DNA from: Prorocentrum cordatum
Taxonomy: Eukaryota
Length of the DNA: 64,000 nt
Direction: 5' to 3'
NCBI GenBank assembly: GCA_963575745.1
Contig: CAUYUJ010000322.1
Span: forward strand, 1-64,000
Shown here: in pieces, positions 2,168 through 56,911 of the stretch
Layout: each line of letters starts with the position of its first letter
How positions within the stretch are numbered: position 1 is the first letter of the stretch
Program-made: the position numbers and the translations under genes
The notes under the pieces: generated by a model
Seen by the model: the letters and a program-made list of their open reading frames with translations, nothing else
The model's database searches: none
What the model was told of the DNA's origin: nothing

Positions 2168-2198
<31 letters not shown>

Positions 2199-2220
2199 CG
2201 GGACCGGGACCGGGACCGGG
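1845..2220 (+). repeat. Compound microsatellite: (GAC)n, long (GAG)n ~1935-2133, (GAC)n, (CCGGGA)n
   Basis: Directly visible simple repeats. They generate spurious poly-E/R/P/S/L ORFs. Confidence 0.95.
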
Positions 2221-15740: not shown

Positions 15741-15756
15741 GGAGCATTACAAGGCC

Positions 15757-19197: not shown

Positions 19198-19239
19198 GAT
19201 CGCCCCTCCATGGCCGCTTGCCAGGGCGTCCCTCATTGA

Positions 19240-21366: not shown

Positions 21367-24300
21367 GGTGGAAACACTGATGTAACTAGAGCACCGCCGA
21401 ATTCAACACACGCAAATCATACCCCACTCCGTCGAGCAATGGCATGTGGTGCCCACTCCCTGCACCATGCAACCGCCGCCTTGGAGCATGAGCTATAGTG
21501 AATCGCCCATCCACAAGTATTTGCACTGATATGCTCACACTCTTGCAGACAATTTGAATTGACCTGGCGTCACATGCAGCGACCAGGTTGGGTACTTGAC
21601 CGTCGGATATTTCCTGCACATTCCAGGTATCGATCACGGTCTCTGTCGCAGCCCGACCGCCCCGTCAATGATTCGGGCACCGTAGTGTCTGAAGAAACTG
21701 CACCGGCTTAATAGCAGGCTCAACGTGTGTCAAATTGTCACCATAGGGTTTCATTATTTTGTCGGTTTCCATTCTACAATCATTGTCTTTTGTGTAGTAT
21801 CATCAGCATGTTATTGGCGGATCCGTCTCACCCCGTCGAATGTTTCTTCATATCAGAAAATAGTGCTTCAAACCGTGCTATCCCCGCCCACGTATCACGG
21901 TTCTCCCATCCCTCCCTTGAAACCCACCCCTTAAACTCAACATAACGTATATTCCAACCAGGATCGTGCCTGTCCGTACCCGCCTTCGTGATCCACTTGC
22001 TACCGACAGCCCGTCCCGCTGCTTGCTTCTGAACTTCATTGGTGAAGTCCTGGATCGCCGGTTCTGTTTTTGATGTCCTCGAGTCCAGAAATACTTGTAA
22101 GCGTCCACTTGTAAGCGTCAGCGAAGCGAAGCGCGGAACGTCGCACGGGGACCTCTGTCAAGCCGCCTGAAACGATGCGCGAGACGCTGGAAACATCGCA
22201 GGAGACGCTTGCAGGGGCGCCGTCTACGATGCGTGGGGCCCTATGCGTGATGTTGACCACTTGGGGGAATATTTAGATGCACTAAGCAAGTGCAGTGTTA
22301 CTATGTTTCAAACTACACAGGCTGCAGTAATACCATGGGTGGGGATGGATGCTCAGACGGAACTTGAACCAGATATGCTGGGAATGCCGGGAGGAGGTCT
22401 TATGCAGGTGGACGGGAGAAGGGATGAGGCGAACTACCATGCAGAGAGGAGGGACATGCTTATGAGGTTCATGAGTACTTTGGGAATCTGTGCGGCGAAC
22501 ACATATGGAGTCCGACGTATCACACATATACCGTACTGTTCCACACATGTGCAGCGTGTGCTTGACTATATACTCATCCCTACACGTTGGTGCGCGGGAT
22601 GAGGCAAGAGCGCACCAGGAAATGAGATGCCAGGTCGAGTTTGTTGAACCTATCAAAGCTACGCCAGGTAACGTGGAAATGCCAGTGCCTATAGTGATCA
22701 CGTTCTGGTCTGGGTAAATCTCAAGACGACGGAGATCAGGCGCCCAGCTTTGCCACCCCGCCCTGTGTCCATGGTTGGCTGGCAGCCGACGGATGACACG
22801 GCGAGGAACATGTTTCGTGTGCTTGCGGATGTGTCGATTGAGGGACTTGCATCGGACACGGTAGGGACGGACCTGCAGCAGGTCGGACGGGTACTCTTGG
22901 AGACGGCAAAGCTTGTGGACCACACTAAGGGGCGCCCCAACTGCAAACCTATTCAGAGGCCCAGGGAGCTCATAGAGGTGGAGTCTGCCATCAGGCGTGG
23001 GGCCCTTGCGAATACTCCAAAAAAACTGCTGCGTAGGAGGAAGACCCTTAGGAGACAGCATAGGAGGAACCAACTCCTGCAGGACCACAGGGGATCCAGT
23101 AAGACCTCACGGTGTATCCTCAAGGAGCTGGAGTGTGAGGGTGTGCTGACAATGGACAGGACTAGGTGGAGTACGGAGATCACTAGGCATGCGACGGCGT
23201 CGTACCCTGTGTGCCTCATCAGAGCCATTGTGGAGCCCATGCTGGATAACATTGCTACCTTTGAGTTTCAGAACGTGTGCGGCGATGAGGTGAGATACAA
23301 CAAATCGGTCCGAACGGGAGGTAAGGAGGGACCCATACTTTTCAATATTGTCTTGGAGGCCATCTGGGGATCTGTGATTCAGACTTGGGATACCTTAGGA
23401 TACGGTGTCCGACTGGAAGGGGAGGGGACGGACGGTGCTCTTGTACACCACTTCTTGTGGGCGGACAATGTTACGCTCTGTGCTGCATCGCAGCTCCAGC
23501 TACAACAGATGATCGGTATGATGACGGTAACACTCAGACGGGCAGGGATGGACTGGAAGGAGGACTCTTTGGCGTATGTACTTTTTGGCCAGACGTACAC
23601 AGGTGGCGATCCGCCGCTGCTCTGCCCGCTCTCGCCAGCCATCTGTGCGATTTCTGGAGATGAGGATCTCCCAGAGCACTTGCGCTCGACTGTCGTAATG
23701 CCGAGGAAGGAGGAGGTGGAGGTACTAGGAGTGAAGCTCAGCTCGGAAATCAAGGGATATCACGGCTTGTATCATCGACTGGAGAAAGGGAGGAAGGCCT
23801 ATTTTGCTGACATCCAGTTTTATCGCTCCAGATCGGTCTCACTCAAAGAGAAGTTTCGCAGGTATGCCGCTCGTGTGCAGTCTGTGGTGTACCACGGATG
23901 TATAGGCTGGCCGTGCAATCTACGACTGCTGGAGAGGATTAAGGTCTGGGAGGGGAGGTGTCTCAACGGTATGCGAGGATTACACAAGAGGGAGGAGGAG
24001 ACGTGGGAGGAGTTCAGGGACAGGACCACACCGAAGTCATACGAGCTATTCTTGCAGGCTGGCCACTGCAGTCTCCTAGAGAAGGTGGTCCGAGCCAATT
24101 TCGAGTTTGCGTTGGAGCTGGCCCAGTTTCATGATCGGGCCTTCGCCTCCACGGACATTCGTGGGGCACGAGCCTGGCGTCAGACGCTTCAGGCCATGCT
24201 ACACTGTGCGGGGGAATGGTCACTACGGAGGGACAGACTTGTATCCATGTTCACGGGAGCCAGGAGGAGGGAAGGTACGAGGAGAGTGGGAGGGAGAGCG

Positions 24301-25170
24301 CATGCAAGCACTGACAGCTGGCATTGTCTTATGCTGGCGGCGAGTGGTAATTTACGCTGGTTTAGCATCAAGCGGAATGCAACGGACTGGTGGAATGTAG
24401 TTGCGTGCATGACAAAAATACAGCCTCGATGGGAGCCCATCTTCAGGAAACCGCCCTGTGCTCCTTGCCCTGTGGATACGTGGGACTCCCCTGAGGACTC
24501 CGACAGGCTCGCTCGTAGGATTGCCCACGGATATAACAACGAAACTGTCTGGCAGGAGGGCTCGGAGAGCTCATTGTTGGTTGAAATGACTGGTGATAGT
24601 ATGTGTGTGGTGAACTGGGCCCGAGGGATCTGGGAATGCCGTGATCGTTCGTACCGCAGGAGAGTGCACGGTCTACAAAACGATATGAATCAACTGGCGG
24701 AGGATTACGACATCAGGTGTGCCACTGTAGGGGCGGATCCGTGGAAGCATATCTACAGAGAGTTCAATTGTGTTGCGGATGAGTTGACTTGGGAGGCGAG
24801 GAGGGGAAGGACGGGAAGATGGATTGACTTCAGATATTTACGACAACAGAGACATTGTATCAAACGTATCCGTGGAGGATGGGACGGTGGCGTGAGTGTT
24901 GAAGGCTCTGCTCTAGGTTGCTATGTGGAGGTCTCATTTGGGGACAACCACTGGCGACGAGTCTTCCAGGAGGCTTCTTTACTCCCTCTGGGGGCCACTG
25001 TTACAGATAGCGAGCTCACAGCTTGTGAACGCCTGCTCCAAGGTGTTCGGCAGATTATCTCTGAGATCCTCGGGCCTCCAACCCCAAAGAGGTTGAGAGG
25101 GCGTGAGGGGCCCTAGGGACTCTGCGCGGCTAGGGCGCACGCGCCCTGTGTAGCCGACCCCAACACCCCA
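21367..25170 (+). mobile_element. Non-LTR retrotransposon copy 1 (degenerate; 5' part inverted at 21367-~22093; internal RT deletion)
   Basis: Minus-strand TGA-CGG..IDTWNVQ. Plus strand MDAQTELE, AANTYG, LDYILI, SDH (APE); VRTGGKEGP, FLWADN (RT); GDS..HIYREFN.AD..WDGG (RNase H). Tail GACCCCAACACCCCA|ACCAAG. Confidence 0.8.
22243..25116 (+). pseudogene. Disrupted ORF2 (APE-RT-RNase H) of LINE copy 1
   Basis: Collinear with the intact ORF2 at 30429-34604, but frameshifted near 22600-22750 and lacking the segment with KAPGPD..DILQAFD. Confidence 0.8.
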
Positions 25171-25502: not shown

Positions 25503-28500
25503 TTTGAGCTGTAGTATTTTTTCCCGTGATATTCGATCTTATTCCCGCTCGCCATCTTGATCTCAGCTCGATCGGGTGAATATTACTATCGAAAAGCACT
25601 GTGGCGGGATCGGCCGTTTTGAGTCATCTTGATACGCGCTGGCGGTTTTCTGAACATAACTCCAGCTTTAGGACAGCTACAGAGCTGGTAAGCGCAGCTA
25701 ATCGATGTAGAATAATTCAGCGCGTCCGCCTGAATCCAGAGGTCTGAACTCGGTCTGTTAGCCGAGCTAGGTCCGCAAACCTATTCGTATTATTCGAGTC
25801 ATCTTGACAGGAACTCTCGGTTTTCTGTACTTAACTCGAGCTCTAGGACAGCTACAGAGCTGACATTTACAGAAACCGATTCAGAATCATCAGTTGCGTT
25901 TGCCTGTCGAATCCAGAGCTCTGAACTCGGTCTGCTGCCCGATCTAGAATCGCGAAACTATTCGTTTTAGTCGAGTCATCTTGAGAAGTGCTCTCGGTTT
26001 TCTTCACTCAACTCGCGCTGAGGGGGGCTACTGTGCTGGTGGTCACAGGAATCGATTTGAAGACATCAGGCGCGTCCGCCTGTCGAATCCAGAGCTCGGA
26101 ACTCGGTCTGCTGCCCGAATTAGGTCTGCGAAACTGCTGTATTGTTCGAGTCATCTTGAGAGGTGCTGTCGGTTTTCTGCATTAACTCGGGCTGTAGGGG
26201 GGCTGCAGGCTGGTAATGACAGGAGTCGATTCGCAGACATCAGACGCGTCCGGCTGTCGCATTCAGAGGTCAACAAATATTCACTATGAGTCGGAATGTT
26301 GGTAGGTGCTGTCGGTTTTCTCAACTTCGGCAAGAAAAATCTCGACGGACCTTTTGCTGACTTTTGGTCGGTTGAAAATTTTGTTCTCGAGATTTTAACA
26401 TTCGTTAGAGCTCATTTTTTCCCACCATTTTGATCTTATTACCTCGTAGAGCTCTTCGGCATCGATGAGCTAGAGGAATTCCGGCGCAGGGTGGAGCTAG
26501 TCGGCCGACCCGGCCTTAAGAGACAAAGTGGTGACTTTGGGTCGATTTTGCTAAGATTCGAAAGATATTTGACAATTCATTTTGAGAAACCAGATTTTTC
26601 TCACGTGTAGTGGGTTATGACGCGTCTGCCAGTAAAATTTTCAGGTCCGTAGCTGCAATATTACTATCGAAAGATTTGCAGGAACCGATTTTCGATGAAA
26701 ACCGAAAAATCGTGATTTTTCGAATTTTTCTGCTCTCGCTTGAGAAGCTTCCTTCATGTTCCGAGAAGCGCTGCAACGAAAGAGCTCTACGAGGTGCCCG
26801 GCGGTAACCTGGTTGACGGTTTACCGCCGGTTCCCATCCCGCTCGCCATCTTGATCTCAGCTCGATCGGGTAGATATTATTGCAAAAAAGCATCGCGGCG
26901 GGATCGGCTGTTTCGAGTCATCTTGATACGCGTTGTCGGTATTTTGTACTTACCTCGAGCTGTAGGGCAGCCACAGAGGTGATTATCACAGAAATCGATT
27001 GCGAATCATCAGGCGCGTTCGTCTGTTCCATCCAGAGGTCTGAACTCGGTCTGCTGCCCGAGCTATCGTTTTGTTGGAGTCATCTTGAGAGGTGCTGATA
27101 GTTTTCTGCACTGAACTCGGGCTGTATGGAGGCTTCAGTGCTGGTAATTAGAGGAATCTGGAGAGATCAGACGCGTCCGCCTGTCGAATCCAGAGCTCGG
27201 AACTCGGTCTGCTGCCCGAACTAGGTCCGCGAAACTATTCGTATTGTTCGAGTCATCTTGAGGGGTGCTGTCGGTTTTCTGCACTCAACTCGAGCTCTAA
27301 GGGGGCTGCATGGCTGGTAATCACTGGAATCGATTTAGAGACATCAGTCGCGTCCACTTGTCGCATTTAGAGCACTGAACTTGGCCTGCTGCCCGAGCTA
27401 GATCCGTAACACTATTCGTATTGTTCGAGTCATCTTCAGAGGTGCTGTCGATTCTCTGCATTTAACTCGGGCTGTAAGGGGGCTGCAAGGCTGGTAATCA
27501 CATGAATCGATTCGGGAGACATCATGCGCGTCTGCCTGTTGCATTCAGATGTACGAACTCGGTCTGATACTCGAGCTAGATTCGCGAACCTATTTCTATT
27601 GTTCGAGTGATCTTGAGAGGTGCTGTCGATTTTCGCGCGTAACTCGCGCTTTAGGAGAGCTACGGAGCTCGTGCGCACAGAAACGATCCAGAAGCATGAG
27701 GGGCGTTTGGCTGTTGCATCGAGGGATGTGAAATCGTTTAGGCTCAAAAATTATTCGTTCTCTGCATTTTTTTCGACGTTATATATGCTCAGGAAGCTCT
27801 ACGAGTCCCCCGGCGGTAAGGAAGGTTGACGGTTTACCGCCGGCGCCCAGTGACTCGTAGAGCTTCCCTAAGCTAACAGCTGGAAGCTTAAGAGTAATTC
27901 GGACGCACTGGCGGGCTAGTTGGCTCGAAAAATCTCGACGGAACTTTTGGTGACTTTTGCTCAGTTAAAAAATATGTTCTCAAAATTTGAACATTCGTTA
28001 GAGCTCTAGTATTTTTTCCCGTGATATTCGATCTTATTCCCGCTCGCCATCTCGATCTCAGCTCGATCGGGTGAATTTTACTATCTAAACGCACTGTGGC
28101 GGGATCGGCCGTTTCGAGTCATCTTGATACGCGCTGACGGTTTTCTGATCATAACTCGAGCTTTAGGGCACTACAGAGCTGGTAAGCACAGCTAATCGAT
28201 GTAGAATGATTAGGCGCGTTCGCCTGTTGAATCTAGAGGTCTGATCTCGGTCTGTTAGCCGAGCTAGGTCCTCAAACCTATTCGTATTATTCGAGTCATA
28301 TTGACAGGAACTTTCAGTTTTCTGTACTTAACTCGAGCTGTAGGACAGCTACAGAGCTGATATTTACAGAAACCGATTCAGAATCATCAGTTGCGTTTGT
28401 CTGTCGAATCCAGAGCTCTGAACTCGGTCTGCTGCCCGATCTAGAATCGCAAAACTATTCGTATTGGTCGAGTCATCTTGAGAAGTGCTCTCGGTTTTCT

Positions 28501-28875
28501 TGACTCAACGCGCGCTGAGGGGGGCTACAGTGCTGGTGGTCACAGGAATCGATTTGAAGACATCAGGCGCGCCCGCCTGTCGAATCCAGAGCTCGGAACT
28601 CGGTCTGCTGCCCGAATTAGGTCTGCGAAACTACTGTGTTGTTCGAGTCATCCTGAGAGGTGCTGTCGGTTTTCTGCACTTAATTCGGGCTGTAGGGGGG
28701 CTGCAGGGCTGGTAATGACAGGAGCCGATTCGCAGACATCAGACGCGTTCGCCTGTCGCATTCAGAGGTCAAAAAATATTCACTATGAGTCGGAATGTTG
28801 GTAGGTGCTGTCGGTTTTCTCAACTTAAGTCGAGCTAGGAAGCTCTACGAGTCCCCCGGCGGTAAGGAAGGTTGA
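25503..28875 (+). repeat. Stack of family A elements (178-bp units) with a nested family B element
   Basis: Same unit sequence as 1-1133. An A 3' end at 27850 is followed directly by an A 5' end TGACTCGTAGAGCTTCC at 27851. Confidence 0.85.
26440..26836 (+). mobile_element. Full-length ~400-bp non-autonomous element, family B
   Basis: 5' TACCTCGTAGAGCTC and 3' GAGCTCTACGAGGT plus stem-loop. Cleanly interrupts the A consensus GATCTTAT|TCCCGCTCGCC with no TSD. Confidence 0.8.
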
Positions 28876-29381
28876 GGAAGCGGAGTTTACCTCCCGCTCT
28901 CCCTCGGCCTTGTCCCGTCGGGGGGCTCACTCGAGCTGCATCGTGCAGTCAGGCAGCCTGCCCCTGGCCCGCCGCGCGGGGGGCGCGTGGCGATTGGGCC
29001 ACTTCGGCGACGCCTGCACTTGTTTGCGGCATTGTTTGCACTTGTTTGCGAGCAGGCCGCCTGCACTTCTTTGCGGCATTTTGCCGCGTCGAGCTGGACG
29101 GGACGAGCCAGAGTCAATCGATCGATTTGGACCGCTGGGGAGCCAACTTCGGACATTGGGAGTGGGAGTATCTTGCCAGACAGGTTGGTAGAGCTCGACA
29201 CGACGATAAGGATTCTCTAGTCGACATACCATCTGGGCCACCTGATCTCTCTCCCACTTTACCTCACCATCCTGTTGCCCCATATAACTTTCATCAGTTG
29301 AGTGCACATCTCAAACGTACTCGAGAAGATCGATCGTTCTGTGCGAAGTGGAATATCCCTTGTAATATCTCAGACGGCAAG

Positions 29382-30428
29382 ATGGCTGCCTCATCAGCTG
29401 CTGCGGTCCCCGAGGTTTTCGCTATGGACGCCACGGATATGCCCGTTCCAGGAGCCAAGGAGGAGGAGGTCCCAGAGGGAAAACGGGTCAAAATTCAGAC
29501 GGTTGAAGGCCTCGAGGAGGCCATGACAAAGGGGATGGACAAGATCACGACGCTTGTTGCATCTCTGGGAGGTAAGATGACGGAGGGCTTCCAATCAACA
29601 CATCGAAGCATCACGGATCTCGGCACCCAGCTCAATGCTCGTGTTGATTCGGTGGAGAAAAATGTACAGCAGGCGATGACGGACATAGATGCTATTACTA
29701 AGAAGGTTGAGGATCAGAGGCTCCAGATAATCCAGCTCCAGCAGGCTCCTGCAGGTGGGGCCCCCAGAGCAGGCACCTCTACGACAGCGTCCTCGGCGGA
29801 AACTCGGCAGTCAGTGCAGAATTTCACCCCATCGTTCGTCGAGCTCAAGGGATGGGTGACGGACTGGAGGGATGCAGAGAAGCGTCAGGAGGAGATGTTA
29901 TCACAGCAGGCGTTGAATTCACTGCTGAATGAGGTCCTGGCTGGAGAATGGTTCAGTGGTGTGAAGGAGTTTCTGGACCTGAACCAATCCAAGAGGTTCA
30001 ACACAGGTAGAGAGGCGTGGGGGTATTCGCGTGCTCGGCTCTATTTCCAGAATGGGGTTACCAGTGACCAGCTGTGGGATCTTCGTCGTCGACTCGTTGC
30101 CGCGATCGCCGACAACAAACTCCAGCACGCTCCCAGGGCCCTCAAGGTCCACGTGGAGGCCCCCCCCTGGAAGAAGCCCCATCTGGATGCCGCTGGGATC
30201 TTTCAGGCCAAGTTCAAGAGTTTCAAGAAGCATCATTCGAATCTCAGGGCTGAGACGGGACCACCGATTACGTTCATGTGGGGCTCCAGTGACCACTTAC
30301 CACCTCCAGGGAAGATTGTGGCCAAGTTCTCTCTGCAGAATGGCTGGGAGATCACTCGTGCAATGAATCAGCTTGAGCCAGGGATCAACATTGATGAGTT
30401 GCGAGCGAGGATTTCCAGTACGAACTAG
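29382..30428 (+). CDS. LINE ORF1 (coiled coil plus globular domain)
   Basis: First ATG of the 28872 frame. Heptad-like LNARVDSVEKNVQQAMTDIDAITKKVEDQ. FTPSFVELKGW aligns with HVPTWIQISGF of copy 4. Lies upstream of ORF2. Confidence 0.75.
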   Translation: MAASSAAAVPEVFAMDATDMPVPGAKEEEVPEGKRVKIQTVEGLEEAMTKGMDKITTLVASLGGKMTEGFQSTHRSITDLGTQLNARVDSVEKNVQQAMTDIDAITKKVEDQRLQIIQLQQAPAGGAPRAGTSTTASSAETRQSVQNFTPSFVELKGWVTDWRDAEKRQEEMLSQQALNSLLNEVLAGEWFSGVKEFLDLNQSKRFNTGREAWGYSRARLYFQNGVTSDQLWDLRRRLVAAIADNKLQHAPRALKVHVEAPPWKKPHLDAAGIFQAKFKSFKKHHSNLRAETGPPITFMWGSSDHLPPPGKIVAKFSLQNGWEITRAMNQLEPGINIDELRARISSTN

Positions 30429-33400
30429 AGGTGCCACGACACCATTGCGTCATGGAATGTGCGTCGGGCAGGTGCAGAGAACGGCCATGACATAATTAAT
30501 TCACTACGTCGTTTAGATGTGGGACTCGCGGGGTTGTGCGAGTGTCAGTTCCTTTCAGTTCGTGATCTCAGCATGCGAGGTTACACAATTTTTCGGAGTA
30601 CTTGTCGGAAGGCTGCGGTGATTATGTCTAAGTCTTGGAGAGACTCGCTCAGAGCCACATATCGTGGCAAAGGTTTTGTCATTTGTAGTTATTCTAGTGT
30701 TACGGTTATTGTTGCATATATGCCACATGAGAGTATCAATGCCCTTACGGAAGAACAGTATGAGCATGATGTGTATGAACAGATATTGTTTGATATATCC
30801 CAAGTGCTTCGCACACATAGGTCTAAGTTCCCGAAGCAGCCGCAGGACCTGGTCTTCTTGACAGATGCTAACGTCGAACTCGAGCCAGATTCGGAGGTCA
30901 ACGGCTTTAGAGTTACTGGATCAGGGCTTCTGGAGGCGTCTGGGATTGCTGGGGAGTCTACGGAGATTGATACTGGGATGGAGGAGGGAGCGGATGACGG
31001 CAACCCGTATATGACTCAAACAAAACGTGGTGCACGCAAAGCCAGACCTCATAGGCTTGTCTCGGGCTTCGAAATTCGACGGGCGTCTAGGTTGCAATCG
31101 ATGAGGAGGGCCCTACTGGACTTCTGCGGGCTCTGGGGCATCAGGATGGAGAACACATTCGGGCAGAGGAGGGTTACTTTCAAATCAGGTACGGGGGTGG
31201 AGAAGGTGCTCGACTATGTTGGTGTCAGCCGTCGTTTACACAGGCAGGAGCTCACCGTTGGCTGGATGCTGCCTTCGGAAGTCGGCCACGCCTGGACGGA
31301 GCACCCTTGCAGCAGATACGAGCGTGCGCTGTCTGACCACGCCTGCATAGTTGTTCGCTTGTCTTGTGCACCGTCTGCGAAGAGACGGACCCAGCCTGCT
31401 CGAAAATTCATCCACTTGCAACCGGTGTCACAGCTGGAGTTTGCGAAGAACATGGACGATCGGGGCAGTCGTTACCGTGCTCTGTGCCAGGAAAATGCTG
31501 ACCCAGAGGATCGACAGGAGATGTTGGATACGCTGGGACCTGACCTCATAAAGGCCGCCGAGGAGACCCCCCAGAAAGATATCAATCCCAGGAATAATGT
31601 GCCAAAGAAATCCGAGATCCACTGGGCCGCCCAGGCAAGTAAACGTGAAGCTCTTCGTCGGGGGGATAGAGAGGAGGCTAAACGGTGCTCAAAGATTGTG
31701 AGGAGAGAAAGAAGGAGGCTAGAGGCAAGAGTACAGAGGTGGAGGACGGAAATGAACACGAGGAGGAGGAGGAGGGCCAAGACGGAGACGTTGATCCTTG
31801 CCAACGGGATGGAGTCTCAGAACCGCGAGGAGTGGGGGGACGAGATATTGGGGCACATGAAGTCTAAGGTGGAGGACCCCGAGGCCAGAGAGGTGACCCT
31901 GCGTGAGCTTCAGTCGCTGCGTGGTCTATGTTCGGGAAGCGGATCCTCAGAGGTGTTCTCGATGTCGCTCCTGCTGCGGGCGAGGGCGAAGCTGTCCACG
32001 GGAAAGGCCCCAGGTCCCGACAACGTGACTGTCACGATGTTGAAACAGCTCTCGTGGGCATCTGTGCGACGTGTTCTGGTGAGCTTCCAAGGTGTGTATT
32101 CCAGAAGGTTATGTTGTCCCGACAGTTGGCGTCAACTAGCTGCCACACTCATGCCAAAAGAAATGGACATACAACATTTGACAGATACACGTATGCTATG
32201 TCTACAGTCGTGTCTTATGAAATGGTACATGACATGTATTGTGATGTTGATTGAGAAGAGGATTGAGGAGCACCGACACTATGTATGCCTGTACGGATTC
32301 AGATCGGGACGCAAAACATCGGAAATCACCAGCGTTGCCAAGAGGCTCAGCCAGCACTCCGCTGTCTGGGGCAAAGGAGACAGTTTGTGGCTTGCCAATC
32401 TTGATATCTTACAAGCTTTCGATAATGTTACTCCGTGCCTCGCCATGCGCTGTCTTCGTGCTCTTGACATACCTGCTGATCTCATTGTGGCGTTGATTGA
32501 ACCCATGATGGATAATCAGTGCGTGGCCAGCTTCGAGGGCATCGAGGCATCGTCAGCGGTCTATTGGGACAAATCTATTCGAACGGGAGGAGTAGAGGGA
32601 CCTATGATTTTTCTGGCAGTTTCTATTGTACTCTGGAGAGATGTTATCGACAGATGGAGGCAAGAAACGCAGTACGGCATCAAATTGGAAAATGATGAGC
32701 GCATGTTCAATGGTGAGCGTATGACCCACAGTTTCTGGGCAGATAATCTTTTGTTGTATGCGAAGACCCGCACTGACCTTGAGTTGATGGTGCGTGACAT
32801 GAGTATCCCCCTGATGAATGCAGGAATGACCTGGAAGCCGAAATCTTTGATGTATATTTACTTTGGTGCGCCGCCTGGCATCCCGCCGTCCCCTGAGCAG
32901 GATATCCGTGTGCTGGTGCCGTCTAGTGACGCCGCTCTTGGGACCCGAGAAGTGGTCCTACCGCGTGTTCAAGCGTTTGAGATCCTGGGAGCCACTCTGG
33001 AGGAGACCTGGAAGGACCACTCGGACTCAGAGGCCATGCTCCAGAAAGCCCAGAGGATGTTCTTTGGGGAAATCGCGTATTACCGCTGTTCTGGGATTGA
33101 CTTGGCTGAAAGATTTACTCGCTATCAAGCTAAAGTGATTGCTGCATTATTATTCAACTGTGAGGGCAGAACGCCCGACTATTCTACCATTGCTGCTGTT
33201 CACTATTTTGAAGGCAGATGTCTAGCTATAATGTCAGGTATACGCAAGCGGAGAACTGAAGGCTGGTCTGAGTTTCAACGTAGGCGATACAAAGCGGGAC
33301 GACAGAGTTTTGCTGGACTTGGATTCCGAAGTGCGGTGCAGATATGGATATTTCGTTGTTGGGATTGGGCTAAGGATGTCTCAGTTGCTGCAAGTATTCG

Positions 33401-34604
33401 TATGAGGAGATACACAACACACACAGAGGAGGAGGAGGGAGAGACGGTACCAAATCGGCGTCAGAGGAAAACTCGGGCGATGGCGGCGGCGGCGACTTCT
33501 CAAACATATCATGTATCTCAGATATCCCAGATGTCGAGTGGCTGTCGCCGGCGTACACCAGATGATCAGCCTGCCATACCTGAGGAGTCGGACATGTCAC
33601 GTGAATGGATGATATCTAGGCTGGCCATGTTACATGGAAGGGGGAAGTGGACGGAACATCGTGACACATGTATTCTAGCAATGCCTGTAAAAGATAGGAA
33701 GCAGCTGACACGCATGAACATAGGCGGCCGCCCCCGTGGACATACTGCGTGGGACTGGTGCTTGTGCGATCTCTTTGGTTGTGAGTGGTACCTCTCATTC
33801 GACAGTTCCGCTGGGTCCCGTGAGAAATACTGCAAGCATTTGCTGACTGTGATTGGTATGCAACACTTGTTCGACTTGTTTGTTCTACCCAGGCCGCCTG
33901 GTGTGAGACATGTGAAGGCAGAGGAGGAGGAGGAGAGTGAGATGAATGAGAGGATGAGCAAACGTATTGCCGCAAATTTTGAGAATGAAACGGAGTGGAG
34001 GTGTGAGAATATTGAGCGTCTTGGGATGGAGATCTTGGGAGATAGTAAGACTGTTGTAAACTGGATGTGTGGTGAGTGGCAGATTCGCAACAAGCAGTAT
34101 GTACGACTGGTGGGAACACTACAAAATACGGTATCGATGCTGTCTGGATGGGGACTGACCTCACCTGCATCGGGACAGAATCTGTATAAGCATTTCTTTC
34201 GTGAGGGTAATGAGCGTGCGGATAAATTGTCGTGGGAGGCCAGAGGTGGCCAAACTATTACTCGCTGGTTTGCATATGATAAGTTCCTCAGTACTCGTAA
34301 GACTGCTCTCCGTGGTGCATTCGATGGGGGTGTCAGTAATGAAGGATGTGGAGGTGGGTGGTGGCTTCAGATTGGCGTTGTAGGTAGGGGTTCCAGCGTG
34401 CAGGTTGATTTTCCCATCTCCTCCTCCTCCTCCTCCTCCTCTTCCTCCTGCACCAGCTCGCACAGCTTCCATTGGCACGATGTGGCCGAGGAGGCGATGA
34501 GCTTGCCTCCTGGTAGCACGGTAACCTGCTGTGAACTAGCTGCCTGCGCTGCCCTGACGAGAGCTGCTGCTAAGGTGGCGTGCGCTCTGCTACGACCTAC
34601 CTAA
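30429..34604 (+). CDS. LINE ORF2: APE endonuclease - reverse transcriptase - circularly permuted RNase H
   Basis: IASWNV, LCE, VAYMPH, TDANV, LDYV, SDH (APE). KAPGPDNV, YGFRSGR, LDILQAFD, IRTGGVEGP, FWADN (RT). GDSKTVVNW, HFFREGNERAD, AFDGG, TVTCCELAA (RNase H). No ATG before WNV. Confidence 0.93.
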   Translation, partial: RCHDTIASWNVRRAGAENGHDIINSLRRLDVGLAGLCECQFLSVRDLSMRGYTIFRSTCRKAAVIMSKSWRDSLRATYRGKGFVICSYSSVTVIVAYMPHESINALTEEQYEHDVYEQILFDISQVLRTHRSKFPKQPQDLVFLTDANVELEPDSEVNGFRVTGSGLLEASGIAGESTEIDTGMEEGADDGNPYMTQTKRGARKARPHRLVSGFEIRRASRLQSMRRALLDFCGLWGIRMENTFGQRRVTFKSGTGVEKVLDYVGVSRRLHRQELTVGWMLPSEVGHAWTEHPCSRYERALSDHACIVVRLSCAPSAKRRTQPARKFIHLQPVSQLEFAKNMDDRGSRYRALCQENADPEDRQEMLDTLGPDLIKAAEETPQKDINPRNNVPKKSEIHWAAQASKREALRRGDREEAKRCSKIVRRERRRLEARVQRWRTEMNTRRRRRAKTETLILANGMESQNREEWGDEILGHMKSKVEDPEAREVTLRELQSLRGLCSGSGSSEVFSMSLLLRARAKLSTGKAPGPDNVTVTMLKQLSWASVRRVLVSFQGVYSRRLCCPDSWRQLAATLMPKEMDIQHLTDTRMLCLQSCLMKWYMTCIVMLIEKRIEEHRHYVCLYGFRSGRKTSEITSVAKRLSQHSAVWGKGDSLWLANLDILQAFDNVTPCLAMRCLRALDIPADLIVALIEPMMDNQCVASFEGIEASSAVYWDKSIRTGGVEGPMIFLAVSIVLWRDVIDRWRQETQYGIKLENDERMFNGERMTHSFWADNLLLYAKTRTDLELMVRDMSIPLMNAGMTWKPKSLMYIYFGAPPGIPPSPEQDIRVLVPSSDAALGTREVVLPRVQAFEILGATLEETWKDHSDSEAMLQKAQRMFFGEIAYYRCSGIDLAERFTRYQAKVIAALLFNCEGRTPDYSTIAAVHYFEGRCLAIMSGIRKRRTEGWSEFQRRRYKAGRQSFAGLGFRSAVQIWIFRCWDWAKDVSVAASIRMRRYTTHTEEEEGETVPNRRQRKTRAMAAAATSQTYHVSQISQMSSGCRRRTPDDQPAIPEESDMSREWMISRLAMLHGRGKWTEHRDTCILAMPVKDRKQLTRMNIGGRPRGHTAWDWCLCDLFGCEWYLSFDSSAGSREKYCKHLLTVIGMQHLFDLFVLPRPPGVRHVKAEEEEESEMNERMSKRIAANFENETEWRCENIERLGMEILGDSKTVVNWMCGEWQIRNKQYVRLVGTLQNTVSMLSGWGLTSPASGQNLYKHFFREGNERADKLSWEARGGQTITRWFAYDKFLSTRKTALRGAFDGGVSNEGCGGGWWLQIGVVGRGSSVQVDFPISSSSSSSSSSCTSSHSFHWHDVAEEAMSLPPGSTVTCCELAACAALTRAAAKVACALLRPT

Positions 34605-37058
34605 GATGGTGGGGGCTCAGTTGCACTGCTCCGCCGATTCGGATTCGGATTCTAGTGGCGGACCGCAAACCGCAAAAAAAACCAAGGTTGACGGTTTACC
34701 GCCGGCGCCCAGTTCCGGGGCGCTGGAGACCTAGTTGGCAAGACAAATCTCGACGGACCTTTTGGTGACTTTGGTCTGTTTGTTCTCGAAATTCAACCAT
34801 TCGTTAGAGCTCTAGTTTTTTTTTTCACGTGGTATTCGATCTTATTCCCGCTCGCCATCTTGATCTCAGCTCGATCGGGTACCTTTCACTGCCAAAAAGC
34901 GTCCAGGCGGGATCGGCCGTTTCGAGTCATCTTGATACGCGCTTTCGGTTTTCTCAAGACAACTCGAGCTTCAGGACAGCCACAGAGCTGATAAGCACAT
35001 CTAATCGATTCAGAATGTTCAGGCGCGTTTGCTTGTTGAATCGAGAGGTATGAACTCGGTCTACTAGCCGAGCTAGGTCCGCAAACCTATTTGTATTATT
35101 CGAGTCATCTTGACTGACGCTCTCAGTTTTCTGTACTTGACTTGAGCTACAGGACAGCTACAGAGCTGATACGTACAGAATCGGATTCAGAATCATCTGT
35201 TGCCGTTGTTTGTTGAATCCAGAGCTCTGAACTCGGTCTGCTGCCCGATCTAGAATCGCGAAACTATTCGTATTGTTCGAGTCATCTTGAGAGGTGCTGT
35301 CGGTTTCCTGCACTTAACTCGGGCTGTAGGGGGGCTGCAGGACTGGTAATCACAGGGATCGATTCAGAGACATCAGGCGCATCCGCCTTTCGAATCGAGA
35401 GCCGAAATCTGTCTGCTGCCCGAACTAGGTTCGCGAAACTATTCGTATTGTTCGAGTCATCCTGAGAGGTGCTGTCGGTTTCCTGCACTTAACTCGGGCT
35501 GTAGGGGGGCTGCAGGACTGGTAATCACAGGGATCGATTCAGAGACATCAGACGCGTCCGCCTGTCGCATGCAGAGGTCTGAACTCGGTCTGATACTCGA
35601 GCTATTCGTACTGTTCGAGTCATCTTGAGAGGTGCTGTCGATTTACGCACGTCACTCGGGCTGTAGGAGAGCTACAGAGCTCGTACAGAAGACAATCCAG
35701 AAGCATCGGGGGCGGTCGGCTGTTGCATCCGAGAGGTCTGAAATTGCTTGGGCTGAAAAACTATTTTTTCTGTGTTATTTTTTTCGACATTATATGTTGT
35801 CAGGAAGCTCTATGAGTCCCCCGGCGGTAACCAAGGTTGACGGTTTACCGCCGGCGCCCAGTTATTGCTGGGAGCTTAAGAGTAATTCGGGGGCGCCGGA
35901 GAGCTAGTTGGCAAGAAAAATCTCGACGGACCTTTTGGTGACTTTTGGTCGGTTGAAAATTTTGCTCTCGAAATTCAACCATTCGTTAGAGCTCTAGTAT
36001 TTTTTCCCGTGCTATTCGATCTTATTCCCGCTCGCCATCTTGATCTCAGCTCGATCGGCTACCTTTCACTGCCAAAAAGCGTCCAGGCGGTATCGGTCAT
36101 TTCGAGTCATCTTGATACGCGGTGACGGTTTTCTCAAGATCACTCGAGCTTTAGGACAGCTACAGAGCTGGTAAGCACAGCTAATCGATTCAGAATGATC
36201 AGGCGCGTTCGCCTGTTGAACCCAGAGGTCTGAACTCGGTCTGCTAGCCGAGCTAGGTCCGCAAACCTATTCGTATTATTCGAGTCATCTTGACAGACGC
36301 TCTCGGTTTTCTGTACTTAACTCGAGCTACAGGACAGCTATAGAGCTGATGCGTACAGAATCTGATTCAGAATCATCAGTGGCCGTTATCTGTTGAATCC
36401 AGAGCTCTGAACTCGGTCTGCTGCCCGCTCTAGAATCGCGAAACTATTCGTATTGTTCGAGTCATCTTGAGAGATGCTGTCGGTTCTCTGCACTTAACTC
36501 GGGCTGTAGGGGGGCTGCATGGCTGGTAATCACTGGAATCGATTCGGAGACATCAGGCGCGTCCACCTTTCGAATCCAGAGCTCCGAGCTCTGTCTGCTG
36601 CCCGAACTAGGTTCGCGAAACTATCCGTATTGTTCGAGTCATCCTGAGAGGTGCTGTCGGTTTCCTGCACTTAACTCGGGCTGTAGGGGGGGCTGCAGGG
36701 CTGGTAATCACAGGAATCGACTCAGAGATATCAGACGCGTCCGCCTGTCGCATGCAGAGGTCTGAACTCGGTCTGATACTCGAGCTAGGTTTGCCAAACT
36801 ATTCGTATTGTTCGAGTCATCTTGAGAGGTGCTGTCGATTTACGCACGTAACTCGGGCTGTAGGAGAGCTACAGAGCTCGTACAGAAGACAATCCAGAAG
36901 CATCGGGGGCGTTCGGCTGTTGCATCCGAGAGGTCTGAAATTGCTTGGGCTGAAAAATTAGTTTTCCCGTGTAATTTTTCTCGAAATTATATGTTCTCAG
37001 GAAGCTCTACGAGTCCCCCGGCGGTAAGACAGGTTGACGGTTTACCGCCGGCGCCCAG

Positions 37059-38277
37059 TAACCCGTAGAGCTTCCCTTAGCAAGTTAATGCTGGAAGCTT
37101 AAGAGTAATTCCGGGGCGCCGGAGAGCTAGTTGGCAAGACAAATCTCGACGGACCTTTTGGTGACTTTTGGTCGGTTGAAAATTTTGTTCTCGAAATTCA
37201 GCCATTCGTTAGAGCTCTAGTATTTTTTCCCGTGATATTCGATCTTATTCCCGCTCGCCATCTTGATCTCAGCTCGATCGGGTACCTTTTACTGCCAAAA
37301 AGCACAGGGGCGGGATCGGCCGTTTCGAGTCATCTTGAAACGCGCTGTCGGTATATTGGACTCTCGAGATGAAGGACAGCTACAGAGCTGGTAAGCACAG
37401 CTAATCGATTCAGAATGATCAGGCGCGTTCGCCTGTTGAACCCAGAGGTCTGAACACGATCTGCTAGCCGAGCTAGGTCCGCAAACCTATTCGTATTATT
37501 CGAGTCATCTTGAGAGGCGCTTTCTGTTTTCTGTACTTAACTCGAGCTACAGGACAGCTACAGAGCTGATACGTACAGAATCTGATTCAGAATCATCAGT
37601 GGCCGTTATCTGTTGAATCTAGAGCTCTGAACTCGGTCTGCTGCCCGATCTAGAATCGCGAAACTGTTCGTATTGTTCGAGTCATCTTGAGAGATGCTGT
37701 CGGTTCTCTGCACTTAACTCGGGCTGTCGGGGGGCTGTATGGCTGGTTATCATTCGAATCGATTCGGAGACATCAGGCGCGTTCGCCTTTCGAATCCAGA
37801 GCTCCGAACTCTGTCTGCTGCCCGAAGTAGGTCCGCGAAACTATTCGTATTGTTCGAGTCATCCTGAGAGGTGCTGTCGGTTTCCTGCACTTAACTCGGG
37901 CTGCAGGGGGGGATGCAGGGCTGGTAATCACAGGAATCGATTCAGAGACATCAGACGCGTCCGCCTGTCGCATGCAGAGGTCTGAACTCGGTCTGATACT
38001 CGAGCTAGGTTTGCCAAACTGTTCGTATTGTTCGAGTGATCTTGAGAGGTGCTGTCGATTTGCGCACGTAGCTCGGCTGTAGGAGAGCTACAGAGCTCGT
38101 ACAGAAGACAATCCAGAAGCATCGGGGGCGTTCGGCCGTTGCATCCGAGAGGTCTGAAATTGCTTTGGCTGAGAAACTATTTTTTCTGTGTAATTTTTTT
38201 CGACATTATATGTTGTCAGGAAGCTCTACGAGTCCCCCGGCGGTGACAAAGGTTGACGGTGTACCGCCGGCGCCCAG
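37059..38277 (+). mobile_element. Full-length family A element (~1.2 kb), exemplar
   Basis: 5' TAACCCGTAGAGCTTCC..GGAAGCTT (subTIR plus partial internal IR), core, ~5 178-bp units, 3' GGAAGCTCTACGAGT, stem-loop, CGCCCAG. Confidence 0.8.
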
Positions 38278-38827
38278 TTGGCCGACCCGGCACCGACGGA
38301 CAAAGTGACAACTTTTGGGTGGTTTTGCGAATATTTGAAAGATATTTGACCATTTATTTTGAGAGAGCAGATTTTTCGCACCTGTAGACGACTATGAGGG
38401 CCTCTCCGTCTTAATATGAGCTCTCTAGCTGCATTTTTACTGTCAAAACACTTGGCGAAACCCACTTTATGTCGACATGGAAAAAAATCATGTTTTCTCT
38501 TTCCTGAGAATTGCTTCCAGAAGCCCTCTCTTTTCATATTAGGAGCTCTACGAGGTTCCCAGCGGTGACGAGGTTGACGGTTCACCGCCGGCGCCAGTTC
38601 CGGGGCGCTGGAGAGCTAGTTGGCAAGAAAAATCTCGACGGACCTTTTGATGACTTTTGGTCGGTTGAAAATTTTGTTCTCGAAATTCAACCATTCGTTA
38701 GAGCTCTAGTATATTTTCCCGTGATATTCGATCTTATTCCCGCTCGCCATCTTGATCTCAGCTCGATCGGATACCCTCTACTGCCAAAAAGCGTCCAGGC
38801 GGGATCGGCCGTTTCGAGTCATCTTGA

Positions 38828-39225
38828 TACCTCGTAGAGCTCTTTGTCATCGATGAGCTAGAGGAATTCCGGCGCGGGGTGGAGCTAGTTGGCCCACCCG
38901 GTTGGGGCGAACAAATTTATGACTTTTGGTCGGTTTTGCGGGAATTTACAAGATATTTAACCATTTATTTTGAGGAAGCAGATTTTTGCGCGTCGCATTG
39001 GCATATAAAGTCCTCTCTGACAGCAGCTCAGCTCTCCCGATGCATTTTCTTATGAGTTGACTTCTCGGAACTGAGCGAATATAAATATCGAAAAAATCGA
39101 AAAAGAAGATATTCGACAAATCTCTATTTTGTGATTCTACTTCCATTCTTAACATTCTTACCAGTGTAAGGAGCTCTACGAGATTCGCGGCGGTGACCAG
39201 ATTGACGGCTCACCGCCGGCGCCAG
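38828..39225 (+). mobile_element. Full-length family B element nested in family A
   Basis: Interrupts CATCTTGA|TACGCGGTG with no TSD. Termini TACCTCGTAGAGCTC and ..GCGCCAG. Confidence 0.8.
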
Positions 39226-41402
39226 TACGCGGTGTCTGTTTTCCCAAGGTAACTCGAGCTTCAGCACAGCTACAGAGCTGGTAAAGCACAGCTAATCGAT
39301 TTAGAATGATCAGGCGCGTTCGCCTGTTGATCCCAGAGGTCTGAACTCGGTCTGCTAGCCGAGCTAGGTCCGCAAACCTATTCGTATTATTCGAGTCATC
39401 TTGACAGACGCTCTCGGTTTTCTGTACTTAACTCGAGCTACAGGACAGCTACAGAGCTGATACGTACAGAATCTGATTCAGATTTATCAGTGGCCGTTGT
39501 CTGTTGAATCCAGAGCTCTGAACTCGGTCTGCTGCGATCTAGTATCGCAGAACTATTCGTATTCTTCGAGTCATCTTGAGAGATGCTGTCGGTTCTCTGC
39601 ACTTAACTCGGTCTGTAGGGGGGCTGCATGGCTGGTAATCACTGGAATCGATTCGAATACATCAGGCGCGTCTGCCTTTCGAATCTAGAGCTCCGAACTC
39701 TGTGTGCTGCCCAAACTAGGTCCGCGAAGCTATTCGTATTGTTCGAGTCGTCTTCAGAGGTGCTCTCGGTTTTCTGCACTTAACTCGGGCTGTAGGGGGG
39801 GGGGGCTGCAGGGCTGGTAATCACAGGAATCGATTCAGAGACATCAGACGCGTCCGCCTGTGGCATGCAGAGGTCTGAACTCGGTCTGATTCTCGAGCTA
39901 GGTTTGCCAAACTATTCGTATTGTTCGAGTAATCTTGAGAGGTGCTGTCGATTTACGCACGTAGCTCGGGCTGTAGGAGAGCTACAGAGCTCGTAGAGAA
40001 GACAATCCAGAAGCATCGGGGGCGTTCGGCTGTTGCATCCGAGAGGTCTGAAATTGCTTGGGCTGAAAAAATATTTGTTCTGTGTGATTTTTTTCGACAT
40101 TATATGTTGTCAGGAAGCTCTGCGAGTCCCCCGGCGGTGACAAAGGTTGACGGTTTACCGCCGGCGCCCAGTTGGCAAGACAAATCTCGACGGACCTTTT
40201 GCTGACTTTTGGTCGGCTGAAAATTTTGTTCTCGAAATTCAACAATTCGTTTGAGCTCTAGTATTTTTTCCGACCATATTCGATCTTTTTCCCGGTCGCT
40301 GTCTTAATCTCAGCTCGATCGGGTAAATATTTCTGCAAAAAAGCGTCGCGGCGGGATCGGCTGTTTCGAGTCATCTTGATACGCGTTGTCGGTATTTTGT
40401 ATTTAACTCGAGCTGTAGGGCTGCTACGGAGCTCATTTTCACAGACATCGATTGCGAATCATCAGGCGCGGTCGTCTGTTCTATCTAGAGGTCTGAACTC
40501 GGTTTGCTGCCTGAGCTAGGTTCGCGAAACTATTCGTATTGTTCGAGTCATCTTGAGAGGTGCTGTCAGTTTTCTGCACTTAACTCGGTCTGTAGGGGGG
40601 ACCACAGGGCTCGTACCCACAGAAATCGATTCGGAGACATCAGGCGCGTCCGCCTGCCAAATCCAGAGCTCAGAACTCGGTGTGGTGCCCGAGCCAGGTC
40701 CGCAACGCTATTTGTATTCTTCAATTCATCTAGAGATGCTGTCCGTTTTCTGCACTTAACTCGAGCTGTAAGGGGGCTGCAGGGCTGGTAATCACTGGGA
40801 TCGATTCAGAGACATCAGTCGCGTCCGCCTGTCGCATTCAGAGCTCTGAACTCTGCTGCTTGAGCTAGGTCCGCGAAACTATTCGTATTGTTCGAGTCGT
40901 CTTCAGAGGTGCTCTCGGTTTTCTGCACTTAACTCGGGCTGTAAGGGGGCGGCAGGGCTGGTAATCACAGGAATCGATTCGGAGACATCCAGGCGCGTCT
41001 GCCTCTTGCATTCAGAGGCCTGAACTTGGTCTGATACTCGAGCTAGATTCGCGAAATTATTTCTATTGTTCGAGTGATCTTGAGAGGTGCTGTCGATTTA
41101 TGCACGTAACTCGGGCTATAGAAGAGCTACGGAGCTCGTGCGCACAGAAAACGATCCAGAAGCATGTGGGGCGTTCGGCTGTTGCATCGAGAGGTCTGAA
41201 ATCGTTTAGGCTACTATTCGTTCTCTGCATTTTTTTCGACATTATATATGGTCAGGAAGCTCTACGAGTCCCCCGGCGGTAAGAAAGGTTGACGGTTTAC
41301 CGCCGGCGCCCAGTTGGCGAAATGTCGAAAAGGGACGCGATCATACCTTCCGCGGCCTGGCTCAGCCGATTTTGCAGTTCTAACAATTCGTTTGGGCTGT
41401 TA

Positions 41403-49890: not shown

Positions 49891-49926
49891 CCGTAGCCAT
49901 TTTGGCTCAAGCCATTTTGGCTCAAG
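49891..49926 (+). other. Dinoflagellate spliced leader (DinoSL) plus one relict SL
   Basis: CCGTAGCCATTTTGGCTCAAG (49891-49911) followed by CCATTTTGGCTCAAG (49912-49926). Exact match to DCCGTAGCCATTTTGGCTCAAG apart from the first base. Confidence 0.97.
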
Positions 49927-54648: not shown

Positions 54649-54974
54649 TTGGTACCGTCCAAAACCCGGAGAGCAAAGAGAACGCACACAGACAGGAAAC
54701 CTTTCCTGGCAAGCCCTCGGACGCTCTCGTGAAGCGCTTCTGAAGCTCTGGGGGGCTCCCCTGCAGCGCTTGTGAAGCGCTGCCAAGAACGCTTCCACGC
54801 GTGCTGTCGCGTGCAGGCACGCGTGGACGCGTGCCCCAAGCGCTCCTGGACCAGCTGCGACGTTTTACAAGCCGCTGCGACGATTCTGGACCGGCGAAGA
54901 TGGGCTGCTGGCGAGCGCCACCACCGTCCGGCTTCTAATCTGAAGCCCTCTAGCTCTCAGAGAGCTCTCCGGGA
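54649..54974 (-). mobile_element. Family C element, inverted
   Basis: Interrupts GATTTAGA|ATCTTCAGGCGCG of a 178-bp unit without a TSD. Perfect subTIR CCCGGAGAGC/GCTCTCCGGG. Confidence 0.8.
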
Positions 54975-56528: not shown

Positions 56529-56911
56529 TACCTCGTGGAGGTCTTCGGCGTCGATGAGCTGAGGAATACCTCGTAGAGGAGCTAGTTGACCGACCCGGCC
56601 TTAAGAGACAAAGTGGTGACTTTGGGTCGATTTTGCTAAGATTTGAGAGATATTTGACCATTCATTTTGAGAAACCATATTTTTCGCACCTGTAATGGGT
56701 TATGACTCTTGCGCCTGTAAAATTTTCAGGTCCGTAGGTACAGTATTACTACCAAAACATTTGGAGCAACCGACGTTAGATAAACATCGAAAAACGTTTT
56801 TTTTTTTTCTCGAGTTTCTCGGATCTCGCTCCAGAAGCTTCCCTCATGTGTTCCGAGGGGCGCGGAAAGAGCTCTACGAGGGTCCCGGCGGTCTACGAGG
56901 GCCCCGGCGGT

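Follow-up and report, generated by a model that had tools for sequence, protein, structure and literature searches.

The paired aspartates of the YxDD motif are regarded as a near-universal signature of reverse transcriptases (RTs), by which these enzymes are called active or dead. For the long interspersed nuclear elements (LINEs) of dinoflagellates, the main text of PMC5890265 describes the SymbioLINE families as old, with some active sublineages and with purifying selection on the RT (Ka/Ks), and excerpts of PMC8045281 depict the LINEs of Symbiodiniaceae as highly diverged remnants of an ancient expansion. We have analyzed 64,000 nt of the Prorocentrum cordatum contig CAUYUJ010000322.1 (assembly GCA_963575745.1, positions 1 to 64,000 of the forward strand; referred to as the window), in which three LINE copies encode an RT with WADN at the place of this motif. 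In our view, these copies probably represent long-separated families of one very large clade of APE-type LINEs, in which an xADN motif of single origin is kept by selection and an RT operating with two carboxylates and an Asn copies its own element. The clade would comprise LINEs of dinoflagellate-like marine protists that encode open reading frames (ORFs) 1 and 2, the latter with endonuclease, RT and C-terminal RNase H, and its motif C would read (W/Y/F)(A/S/V)DN instead of (Y/F)xDD. This Asn would have arisen once from a WADD ancestor, to be held thereafter by purifying selection, and the elements would still copy themselves with the xADN enzyme.

A six-frame scan of the window placed WADN on the forward strand at 23458, 32736 and 58825, the RTGG.EGP pattern in all three copies (VRTGGKEGP at 23311, IRTGGVEGP at 32580, IRTGGPEGP at 58669), and D[IV]LQAFD at 32403 and 58494, thereby reproducing the motifs that an earlier note on this DNA had read from the letters: WADN and (I/V)RTGG(K/V/P)EGP in three copies and D(I/V)LQAFD in copies 2 and 3. 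[YFW]ADD does not occur in any frame of the window. Chance does not account for the three WADN sites, as block-wise shuffles of the window yielded 0.095 on average and 1 at most, with none of 200 reaching three. According to translations and tblastn, the sites occupy the homologous position in three RT-like reading frames; the other copies share 29-34% protein identity with copy 2, and the codons that follow Trp differ synonymously among the three (GCG GAC AAT, GCA GAT AAT, GCG GAC AAC). The picture given by the earlier note needs correction for copy 1, where the RT has lost its front half and, with it, motif A.

To collect relatives of the ORF2 RT of copy 2, cluster representatives (50% identity) were searched exhaustively by HMMER with residues 500-1000; the search returned 1716 library proteins at E<=0.001. 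Motifs were counted in the best 150 of these 1716, of which 117 rows cover motif C and 129 were used for motif B. Motif C ends in DN in 85 of the 117 (67 WADN, 7 WSDN, 5 WVDN, 3 FADN, and 1 each of YADN, WTDN and WEDN), in DD in 27 (14 WADD, 9 FADD, 3 YADD, 1 WMDD), and otherwise in 5. For a tree, we used the query and 90 rows in which 200 or more of the 271 columns were occupied and motif C was ungapped, and took out the motif B and C columns beforehand. Proteins with FADD or YADD and RQGD (14 rows) lie on one side of it; in the other 77 rows motif C starts with an aromatic residue, mostly Trp (13 WADD, 63 xxDN, 1 WANN). The distribution of DN on this 91-row tree requires 4 changes versus 24.1 in shuffles (none of 500 as low), and forcing the 64 DN/NN rows into one clade gave a likelihood higher by 10.8 (p-AU 0.63). 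By these measures, the data are compatible with a single D-to-N origin. The Asn was kept in all 63 rows of the DN clade despite terminal branches of median 0.7 changes per site, and the DN subclades of 35 and 23 rows show no reversion, one WANN apart, with Asp a single transition away from Asn.

Full-length ORF2s only 1-6 residues apart exist in four families, namely P0009 (five ORF2s of 1455 aa, 1-6 residues apart), P0014 (three of 1299 aa), and P0022 and P0006 (two each, the one pair of 1263 aa and the other of 1306 aa). The earlier note had named young active relatives with YADD or FADD, with WADN copies mobilised only in trans, among the findings that would refute a remodelled site; this expectation fails, the near-identical full-length ORF2s all carrying YADN or WADN. 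Its argument that the motif does not reflect decay is likewise borne out, by the 85 of 117 DN rows, by their behaviour as one clade, by the intact near-identical ORF2s, and by the insertion hallmarks and synonymous excess of copy 2 described below. Sequence comparison thus supports WADN as a clade-wide selected motif rather than a product of decay. In other collections, a word-indexed protein search with ORF2 residues 520-1000 gave no match, the same kind of search with the relatives' alignment gave 14 matches at E<=1e-10, and a search of the ESM Atlas returned generic RVT_1 clusters only. Among the sources of close fragments only one bears a name, a EukProt set with the label Pyramimonas sp. 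CCMP1952, a green alga; this label is at odds with the spliced leader found in the window.

The RT core of copy 2 and its motifs are located as follows:

32163-32840, forward strand: reverse transcriptase core, RVT_1, residues 579-804 (E 9.1e-12, 45.6 bits, cut-off 29.6)
32403-32423, forward strand: motif A, DILQAFD, with the catalytic Asp659 and with Gln662 where DD-type LINEs carry Lys or Arg
32580-32603, forward strand: motif B, RTGGVEGP, in which Thr719 replaces the usual Gln
32736-32747, forward strand: motif C, WADN, with the invariant Asp772 and with Asn773 in place of the second Asp

Profile alignments show WADN to be the homolog of motif C of YADD/FADD enzymes. When a profile of 57 clade members was matched to solved R2 proteins, 'thlvWADNiyllA' aligned to 'TAMAFADDLVLLS' and 'SALAYADDLVLLA', motif B 'ggRQGGvetPfl' to 'GVKQGDPMSPLL', which puts RQGGvetP opposite KQGDPMSP, and motif A 'DvkkAFDsm' to 'DIAKAFDTV'; the profile matches to R2 and LINE-1 ORF2p ranged from E 2e-28 (9nl3) to 3e-25, with LINE-1 ORF2p entries at about 2e-25. 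Across the 57 sequences, at about 22% identity, Asp772 (D293) and the motif B Gly are invariant, and conservation is at least 90% for Asp659 (D180), for three more residues of motif A (Ala, Phe and Asp) and for the Trp and Ala in motif C. An AlphaFold model of residues 480-1010 (pLDDT 91, pTM 0.89) places WADN at the turn of a beta hairpin (288-291/294-299) and Asp659 at the end of a strand, and its best fold matches are LINE-1 ORF2p (9hdo, E 4e-17; 8sxt, TMq 0.64) and R2, followed by group II intron RTs. The RVT_1 match of 45.6 bits, the R2 and LINE-1 profile matches and the fold matches identify the protein as an RT of the non-long-terminal-repeat type. Its canonical carboxylates, the motif A Asp and the first Asp of motif C, are in place. 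The canonical (Y/F)xDD is replaced by WADN in all three copies, and the canonical motif B Gln by Thr in all three.

The two replacements differ in their distribution. The earlier note had proposed a conserved remodelled site typical of a lineage, and this is supported for WADN but is too broad for RTGG-x-EGP: Thr in place of the motif B Gln is scattered, occurring in 25 of 129 relatives among the best 150 and in 15 of 91 tree rows, where it requires 10 changes. The majority of WADN proteins have retained RQGG-x-E-(T/S)-P. Judged by this pattern, RTGG is a later, sublineage-level variation and not a feature of the clade. The Lys or Arg of motif A (DxxKAFD) is present in 23 of 26 DD rows versus at most 8 of 65 other rows, and DN rows carry Thr, Gln, Ala or Ser in its stead. 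Also lost from DN rows are a Lys located two positions ahead of the motif A Asp, a Gln located likewise ahead of the GF motif, and a Glu at position 642. Apart from the Asn itself, the strongest differences between DN and DD rows fall at positions that are conserved in ordinary LINEs. The change from DxxKAFD to Dxx(Q/T/A/S)AFD alongside the loss of a charge in motif C suggests charge-balanced remodelling of the nucleotide pocket, in which the lost motif A Lys would balance the lost negative charge.

Two further observations concern the same pocket. We considered the motif B Glu (GG-x-E) as a relocated third carboxylate and rejected it as a specific compensation, since Glu or Asp is found there in 12 of 14 WADD rows too. 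Gln662 (32412-32414) and Thr719 (32583-32585) tend to occur together: among DN rows, relatives with Thr have the motif A Gln in 7 of 15 cases versus 4 of 48 for the others (Fisher p = 0.002), with only 4 independent pairs on supported branches, for which a sign test is non-significant. The pocket Gln may have been relocated from motif B to motif A.

To our knowledge, no right-hand polymerase can do without the Asp of motif A or without the first Asp in motif C. Polymerization by the xADN enzymes would rely on these two universally conserved carboxylates, Asp659 in motif A and Asp772 as the first of the motif C pair. At the primer-side metal, Asn773 would contribute its amide oxygen as a neutral ligand or as a partner in hydrogen bonding, in the manner of the birnavirus and mononegavirus RNA polymerases with ADN or GDN. 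For RNA polymerases, excerpts of PMC4634563 state that changes of the second motif C Asp do not inactivate the enzyme but reduce its activity or shift its metal requirement, and that Birnaviridae and Mononegavirales naturally carry Asn at this position; GDNQ is essential in Ebola virus L, as stated in excerpts of PMC5648267. Weaker binding of metal A and a shift in Mg/Mn preference or rate would be plausible consequences.

In copy 2, both ORF1 and ORF2 are intact; the earlier note had spoken of one copy with intact ORFs. The parts of copy 2 are as follows:

28868-28875, forward strand: 5' copy of the target-site duplication, AAGGTTGA, extending to 12 nt (28864-28875) with 2 mismatches
28876-34683, forward strand: copy 2, a full-length LINE insertion with 5' untranslated region (UTR), ORF1, ORF2, short 3' UTR and A-run, supported by a joint in DNA metagenome contigs
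29382-30428, forward strand: ORF1, 348 codons from the first ATG, with TAG at 30426-30428
30429-34604, forward strand: ORF2, 1391 codons, in the same frame as ORF1 and directly after its TAG
30429-31433, forward strand: putative APE-type endonuclease region with SWN, CEC, TDAN and SDH motifs
34020-34601, forward strand: circularly permuted RNase H, in the order GDS, N..AD, FDGG, CEL, with a poly-Ser insert
34674-34681, forward strand: A-run, read from the sequence
34684-34691, forward strand: 3' copy of the target-site duplication, AAGGTTGA, preceded by the A-run

A Pfam scan of ORF1 found no family and no DNMT. ORF2 has no ATG before codon 49. Its endonuclease region gave no Pfam match in copy 2, and relatives gave sub-threshold matches to Exo_endo_phos (23.6 bits for P0022 versus a cut-off of 24.5); in the alignment of copy 2 with its relatives, the endonuclease columns LQE, GDxN and DH are conserved. 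The element is flanked by a target-site duplication of 8 nt, AAGGTTGA, on both sides, and the final 4-10 nt at its end could belong either to the tail or to the target. When metagenome contigs of four runs were aligned over 28000-35600 at 90% likeness, the empty site was recovered in two DNA metagenomes as a joint that links 28867 to 34684 across 5816 skipped nt, 8 nt being shared (depth 222 in contig X10 and 80.5 in X16), and loose ends at both edges of copy 2 read into the opposite flank. Copy 2 shows the hallmarks of target-primed reverse transcription, namely a target duplication and an A-rich 3' end, with no terminal repeats. Among the listed ORF2 differences between copy 2 and near-identical contigs, 10 of 13 are synonymous and 3 non-synonymous, with 22.6% expected to be synonymous (P = 5e-5, crude omega about 0.09). 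Copy 2 is a real insertion and is under coding constraint.

The DNA of ORF2 (30429-34604) is represented by 0.81-0.94 of sampled words in 9 DNA runs and is at least partly present in 20 rows from 15 studies. The runs with near-identical ORF2 DNA are labelled as marine, freshwater and other metagenomes and as three coded organisms, and for a run labelled urban metagenome the fraction is 0.37. Two RNA libraries, which may contain DNA, yielded contigs on short parts of the stretch only, the most numerous and longest of them within 34038-34523 (X19, 34229-34523; X20, 34038-34330). Both libraries also have short pieces of 18-86 nt (X19 at 28868-28953, 33426-33443 and 33918-33935; X20 at 29619-29636 and 33476-33493), and a further X20 contig, 35403-35600, lies in the flanking repeat.

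Several points weigh against an active enzyme that has been shaped by selection on its Asn. Single changes of the second Asp are generally regarded as crippling for HIV-1 RT. The D185N+D186N double mutant of that enzyme is inactive, according to excerpts of PMC5498913, and for the second Asp of RTs we found this double mutant only, and no clean single-mutant data, in the literature. The near-identical full-length ORF2s may be one locus seen in several samples instead of paralogous copies. The two sides of the empty-site joint are short (24 and 30 nt) and lie in repeated DNA aligned at 90% likeness, and the excess of synonymous changes derives from 13 listed differences, one 982-nt contig alone contributing 8, with 64 more differences in the same aligned stretch outside the 13. 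No contig of the two RNA libraries covers the WADN codons (32736-32747), of which the Asn codon is 32745-32747. Finally, the motif A Lys was lost on the same few branches on which D changed to N, and this correlation may reflect shared ancestry.

These points leave room for other explanations, which we hold to be less well in line with the comparative data. The Asn might be a tolerated and then frozen substitution in an RT that works like any LINE RT, reversion being blocked only by epistasis. One origin is enough for the observed distribution, and the Trp, a motif B of the form GG-x-(E/D)-x-P (12 of 14 WADD rows) and the permuted RNase H are also present in WADD relatives; the D-to-N step would therefore have occurred in an already modified background. 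We nevertheless regard this explanation as unlikely, because the RNA polymerase precedents show changed metal use and because the 35- and 23-row subclades, one WANN apart, have not returned to an Asp that is one transition away. The missing reversions argue for selection on the Asn itself or for strong epistasis.

That WADN RTs are catalytically dead and that a canonical YADD/FADD enzyme encoded elsewhere in the genome copies the elements in trans would fit the view that the retroviral motif C aspartates are essential, the double mutant being inactive. Such enzymes would hardly be expected to preserve the Asp of motif A, the Gly of motif B and the Asp of motif C with little or no variation over 57 sequences at about 22% identity, to keep frames of 1263-1455 codons open in several families, or to show 10 synonymous changes among 13 in the ORF2 of copy 2; moreover, a [YFW]ADD frame is absent from the window, and xxDN outnumbers xxDD by 85 to 27 among the nearest relatives. 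We therefore judge trans-copying of dead enzymes to be very improbable. As a mere idea, the Asn codon (AAT/AAC) could be edited to Asp (GAT/GAC) in the mRNA by an A-to-I type of change, so that the protein would have WADD; one A-to-G change at the first codon position suffices. This strikes us as scarcely credible, as a site-specific signal would have to persist in hundreds of families less than 50% identical to each other, and Asn is found in predicted proteins from RNA- and DNA-origin assemblies alike. A selected xADN motif in an RT that copies its own element thus remains our preferred reading.

A second, independent oddity of the same proteins is found at the end of ORF2, where, as judged from profile alignments and structural modelling, the RNase H has undergone circular permutation, so that the C-terminal half of its fold precedes the N-terminal half. 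The motifs within the last ~200 residues follow the order GDS, N..AD, FDGG, (A/C)EL, which copies 1 and 2 have in common with all the full-length relatives that were inspected, WADD ones among them. The carboxylates D56, D116, D150 and E220, numbered over 33876-34601, show no variation among 16 and among 12 sequences, and these four, the D-E-D-D set of type 1 RNase H, align with the motifs of LC11-RNase H1 and Halobacterium RNase H1. Pfam yields half-matches in swapped order, for example RVT_3 positions 8-62 at the C-terminus of P0109 and 63-119 earlier in P0006. A 12-domain profile aligns with LC11-RNase H1 (E 4e-16) as two segments, 140-202 onto residues 4-62 and 42-120 onto residues 69-137, and Halobacterium RNase H1 is matched likewise in two swapped pieces; together with Sulfolobus RNase HI, these are the best solved relatives (RVT_3/archaeal RNase HI type). 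In the model (pLDDT 87, pTM 0.82), the elements run beta4, alphaB, alphaD, beta5, alphaE, beta1, beta2, beta3, alphaA instead of the canonical beta1-3, alphaA, beta4, alphaB-D, beta5, alphaE. Because the domain is permuted, domain scans miss or half-match it. A single-sequence search of the PDB with the RNase H region gave chance-level matches only; with the model, Foldseek returned nothing at E<=0.001 and one half-domain RNase HI row (3aly_A, 73 columns, rmsd 2.2), and VIA-align gave half matches at Z 3.3-4.0. Half-domain matches are to be expected of a permuted domain and do not attest to a new fold.

The remaining copies in the window are less complete:

22672-25116, forward strand: copy 1, 5'-truncated and with an internal deletion; open frame of 814 codons, VRTGGKEGP at 23311, WADN at 23458
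56784-60449, forward strand: copy 3, dead, with homology spread over frames 3, 1, 2 and 3; DVLQAFD at 58494, IRTGGPEGP at 58669, WADN at 58825
61236-62465, forward strand: copy 4, partial, with an ORF1-like frame, TGA at 62166-62168 and an in-frame ORF2 start, decaying beyond

The Pfam match of copy 1 to RVT_1 spans only positions 106-204 of the 205 in the profile, tblastn with the copy 2 ORF2 (P0001) covers only residues 682-971 and 1057-1390, and the copy ends in the permuted RNase H (24439-25113). Between 22672 and 23210 its open frame leads from the last part of the endonuclease, with the SDH motif, on into the RT; the internal deletion, which took away ~195 residues relative to copy 2, motifs 0 to A included, occurred without loss of frame. 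In copies 2 and 4, a single stop (TAG at 30426-30428; TGA at 62166-62168) parts ORF1 from an ORF2 in the same frame, and homology continues across it (...ST(N/Q)*RC...WN.RR). This layout suggests readthrough or reinitiation, possibly programmed. As the predicted ORF2s of relatives begin with Met, the in-frame-stop arrangement is not universal.

As to the surroundings, the exact dinoflagellate spliced-leader 21-mer lies at 49891-49911, overlapping a truncated relic that reaches to 49926 (none of 100 shuffles gave two matches); the host is a dinoflagellate, given this exact spliced leader in the window. ORFs follow downstream of leader and relic at 50065-51559, an arrangement that marks a retrogene derived from a trans-spliced mRNA, 15 kb from copy 2, and excerpts of the review PMC11453091 link large RT gene families to spliced-leader retrogenes. 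Arrays of a ~177-bp satellite fill much of the window (157-1010, 25621-28767, 34921-41117, 45088-45890, 48727-49556, 52988-55745), copy 2 lying between two of them; in a marine plankton metagenome, contig depth over the satellite reaches 5010 versus 1-9 over the LINE. A stretch of ~70% G+C at 2000-20000 contains giant open frames, one of which (8028-15740) combines DUF6570, Helitron_like_N and PIF1 helicase domains as parts of a very large Helitron-like element, and another (15496-19197) has a UCH ubiquitin hydrolase domain. A tandem repeat with a 102-bp unit (63355-64000, 6.3 copies, 95% matches) reaches the end of the window. A much wider picture may be drawn, in which an active LINE radiation of dinoflagellate-like protists is built on a two-carboxylate-plus-Asn RT, with a co-remodelled pocket (loss of the motif A Lys, a movable motif B Gln) that alters metal or nucleotide handling, a permuted RNase H, ORF1-ORF2 readthrough in some families, and a role in supplying the reverse transcription for the spliced-leader retrogenes that abound in dinoflagellate genomes; taken as a whole, we find this picture possible but rather doubtful.

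A species-rich and apparently mobile clade that has kept Asn over deep divergence would provide a natural system for the role of the second Asp, opening questions of metal A binding, metal preference, rate and fidelity. For annotation it carries a warning, namely that a missing YxDD does not equal decay in dinoflagellate LINEs. The kind of element is known, as it is a dinoflagellate LINE; its active-site variant and its domain permutation are undescribed. We found no mention in print of a DN motif in RTs, supplements and Repbase entries being outside the scope, and no permuted RNase H in retrotransposons by title or abstract, again supplements and Repbase entries aside; the accessible text of PMC5348765 does not contain 'permut', and the main text of PMC5890265, its supplementary alignments lying outside the scope, has no 'YXDD' and a single 'catalytic'.

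The SymbioLINE elements of PMC5890265, compared here by the description in its main text only, have in common with ours the dinoflagellate hosts, an ORF1 and an RT-bearing ORF2; some of them have a DNMT in ORF1, whereas the ORF1 found here has neither a DNMT nor a Pfam family. LINE-1 ORF2p and R2 (8sxt, 9hdo, 8c8j, 9nl3, 8gh6) are the best matches by sequence profile and by fold, sharing the order of RT motifs, the motif A Asp, the AF(D) steric-gate context and the motif C hairpin. With LINE-1, the putative N-terminal APE would be shared in addition, and the target duplication and A-run of copy 2 fit target-primed reverse transcription. Unlike those proteins, which have FADD or YADD and a motif B of the form (R/K)QGDP(L/M)SP, the RT described here has WADN, a motif A without the Lys of DxxKAFD, R(Q/T)GG-x-E-x-P as motif B and an added permuted RNase H at the C-terminus, identity over the fold alignment being 11-16%. 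Plant and oomycete L1 elements with an archaeal-type RNase H (aRNH; excerpts of PMC5348765) have the same type of RNase H at the same place at the end of ORF2; here, in contrast, the halves of the domain are swapped, and no CCHC motif was seen upstream. For the active site itself, the nearest parallels are birnavirus VP1 (ADN) and Mononegavirales L (GDNQ), in which, following the excerpts of PMC4634563 and PMC5648267, a right-hand palm with Asn at the second motif C position is fully active and the first Asp is indispensable. These are viral RNA polymerases, not RTs, and the substitution is not shared by common descent, so that they serve as a working analogy for how the xADN enzymes of the clade may operate.

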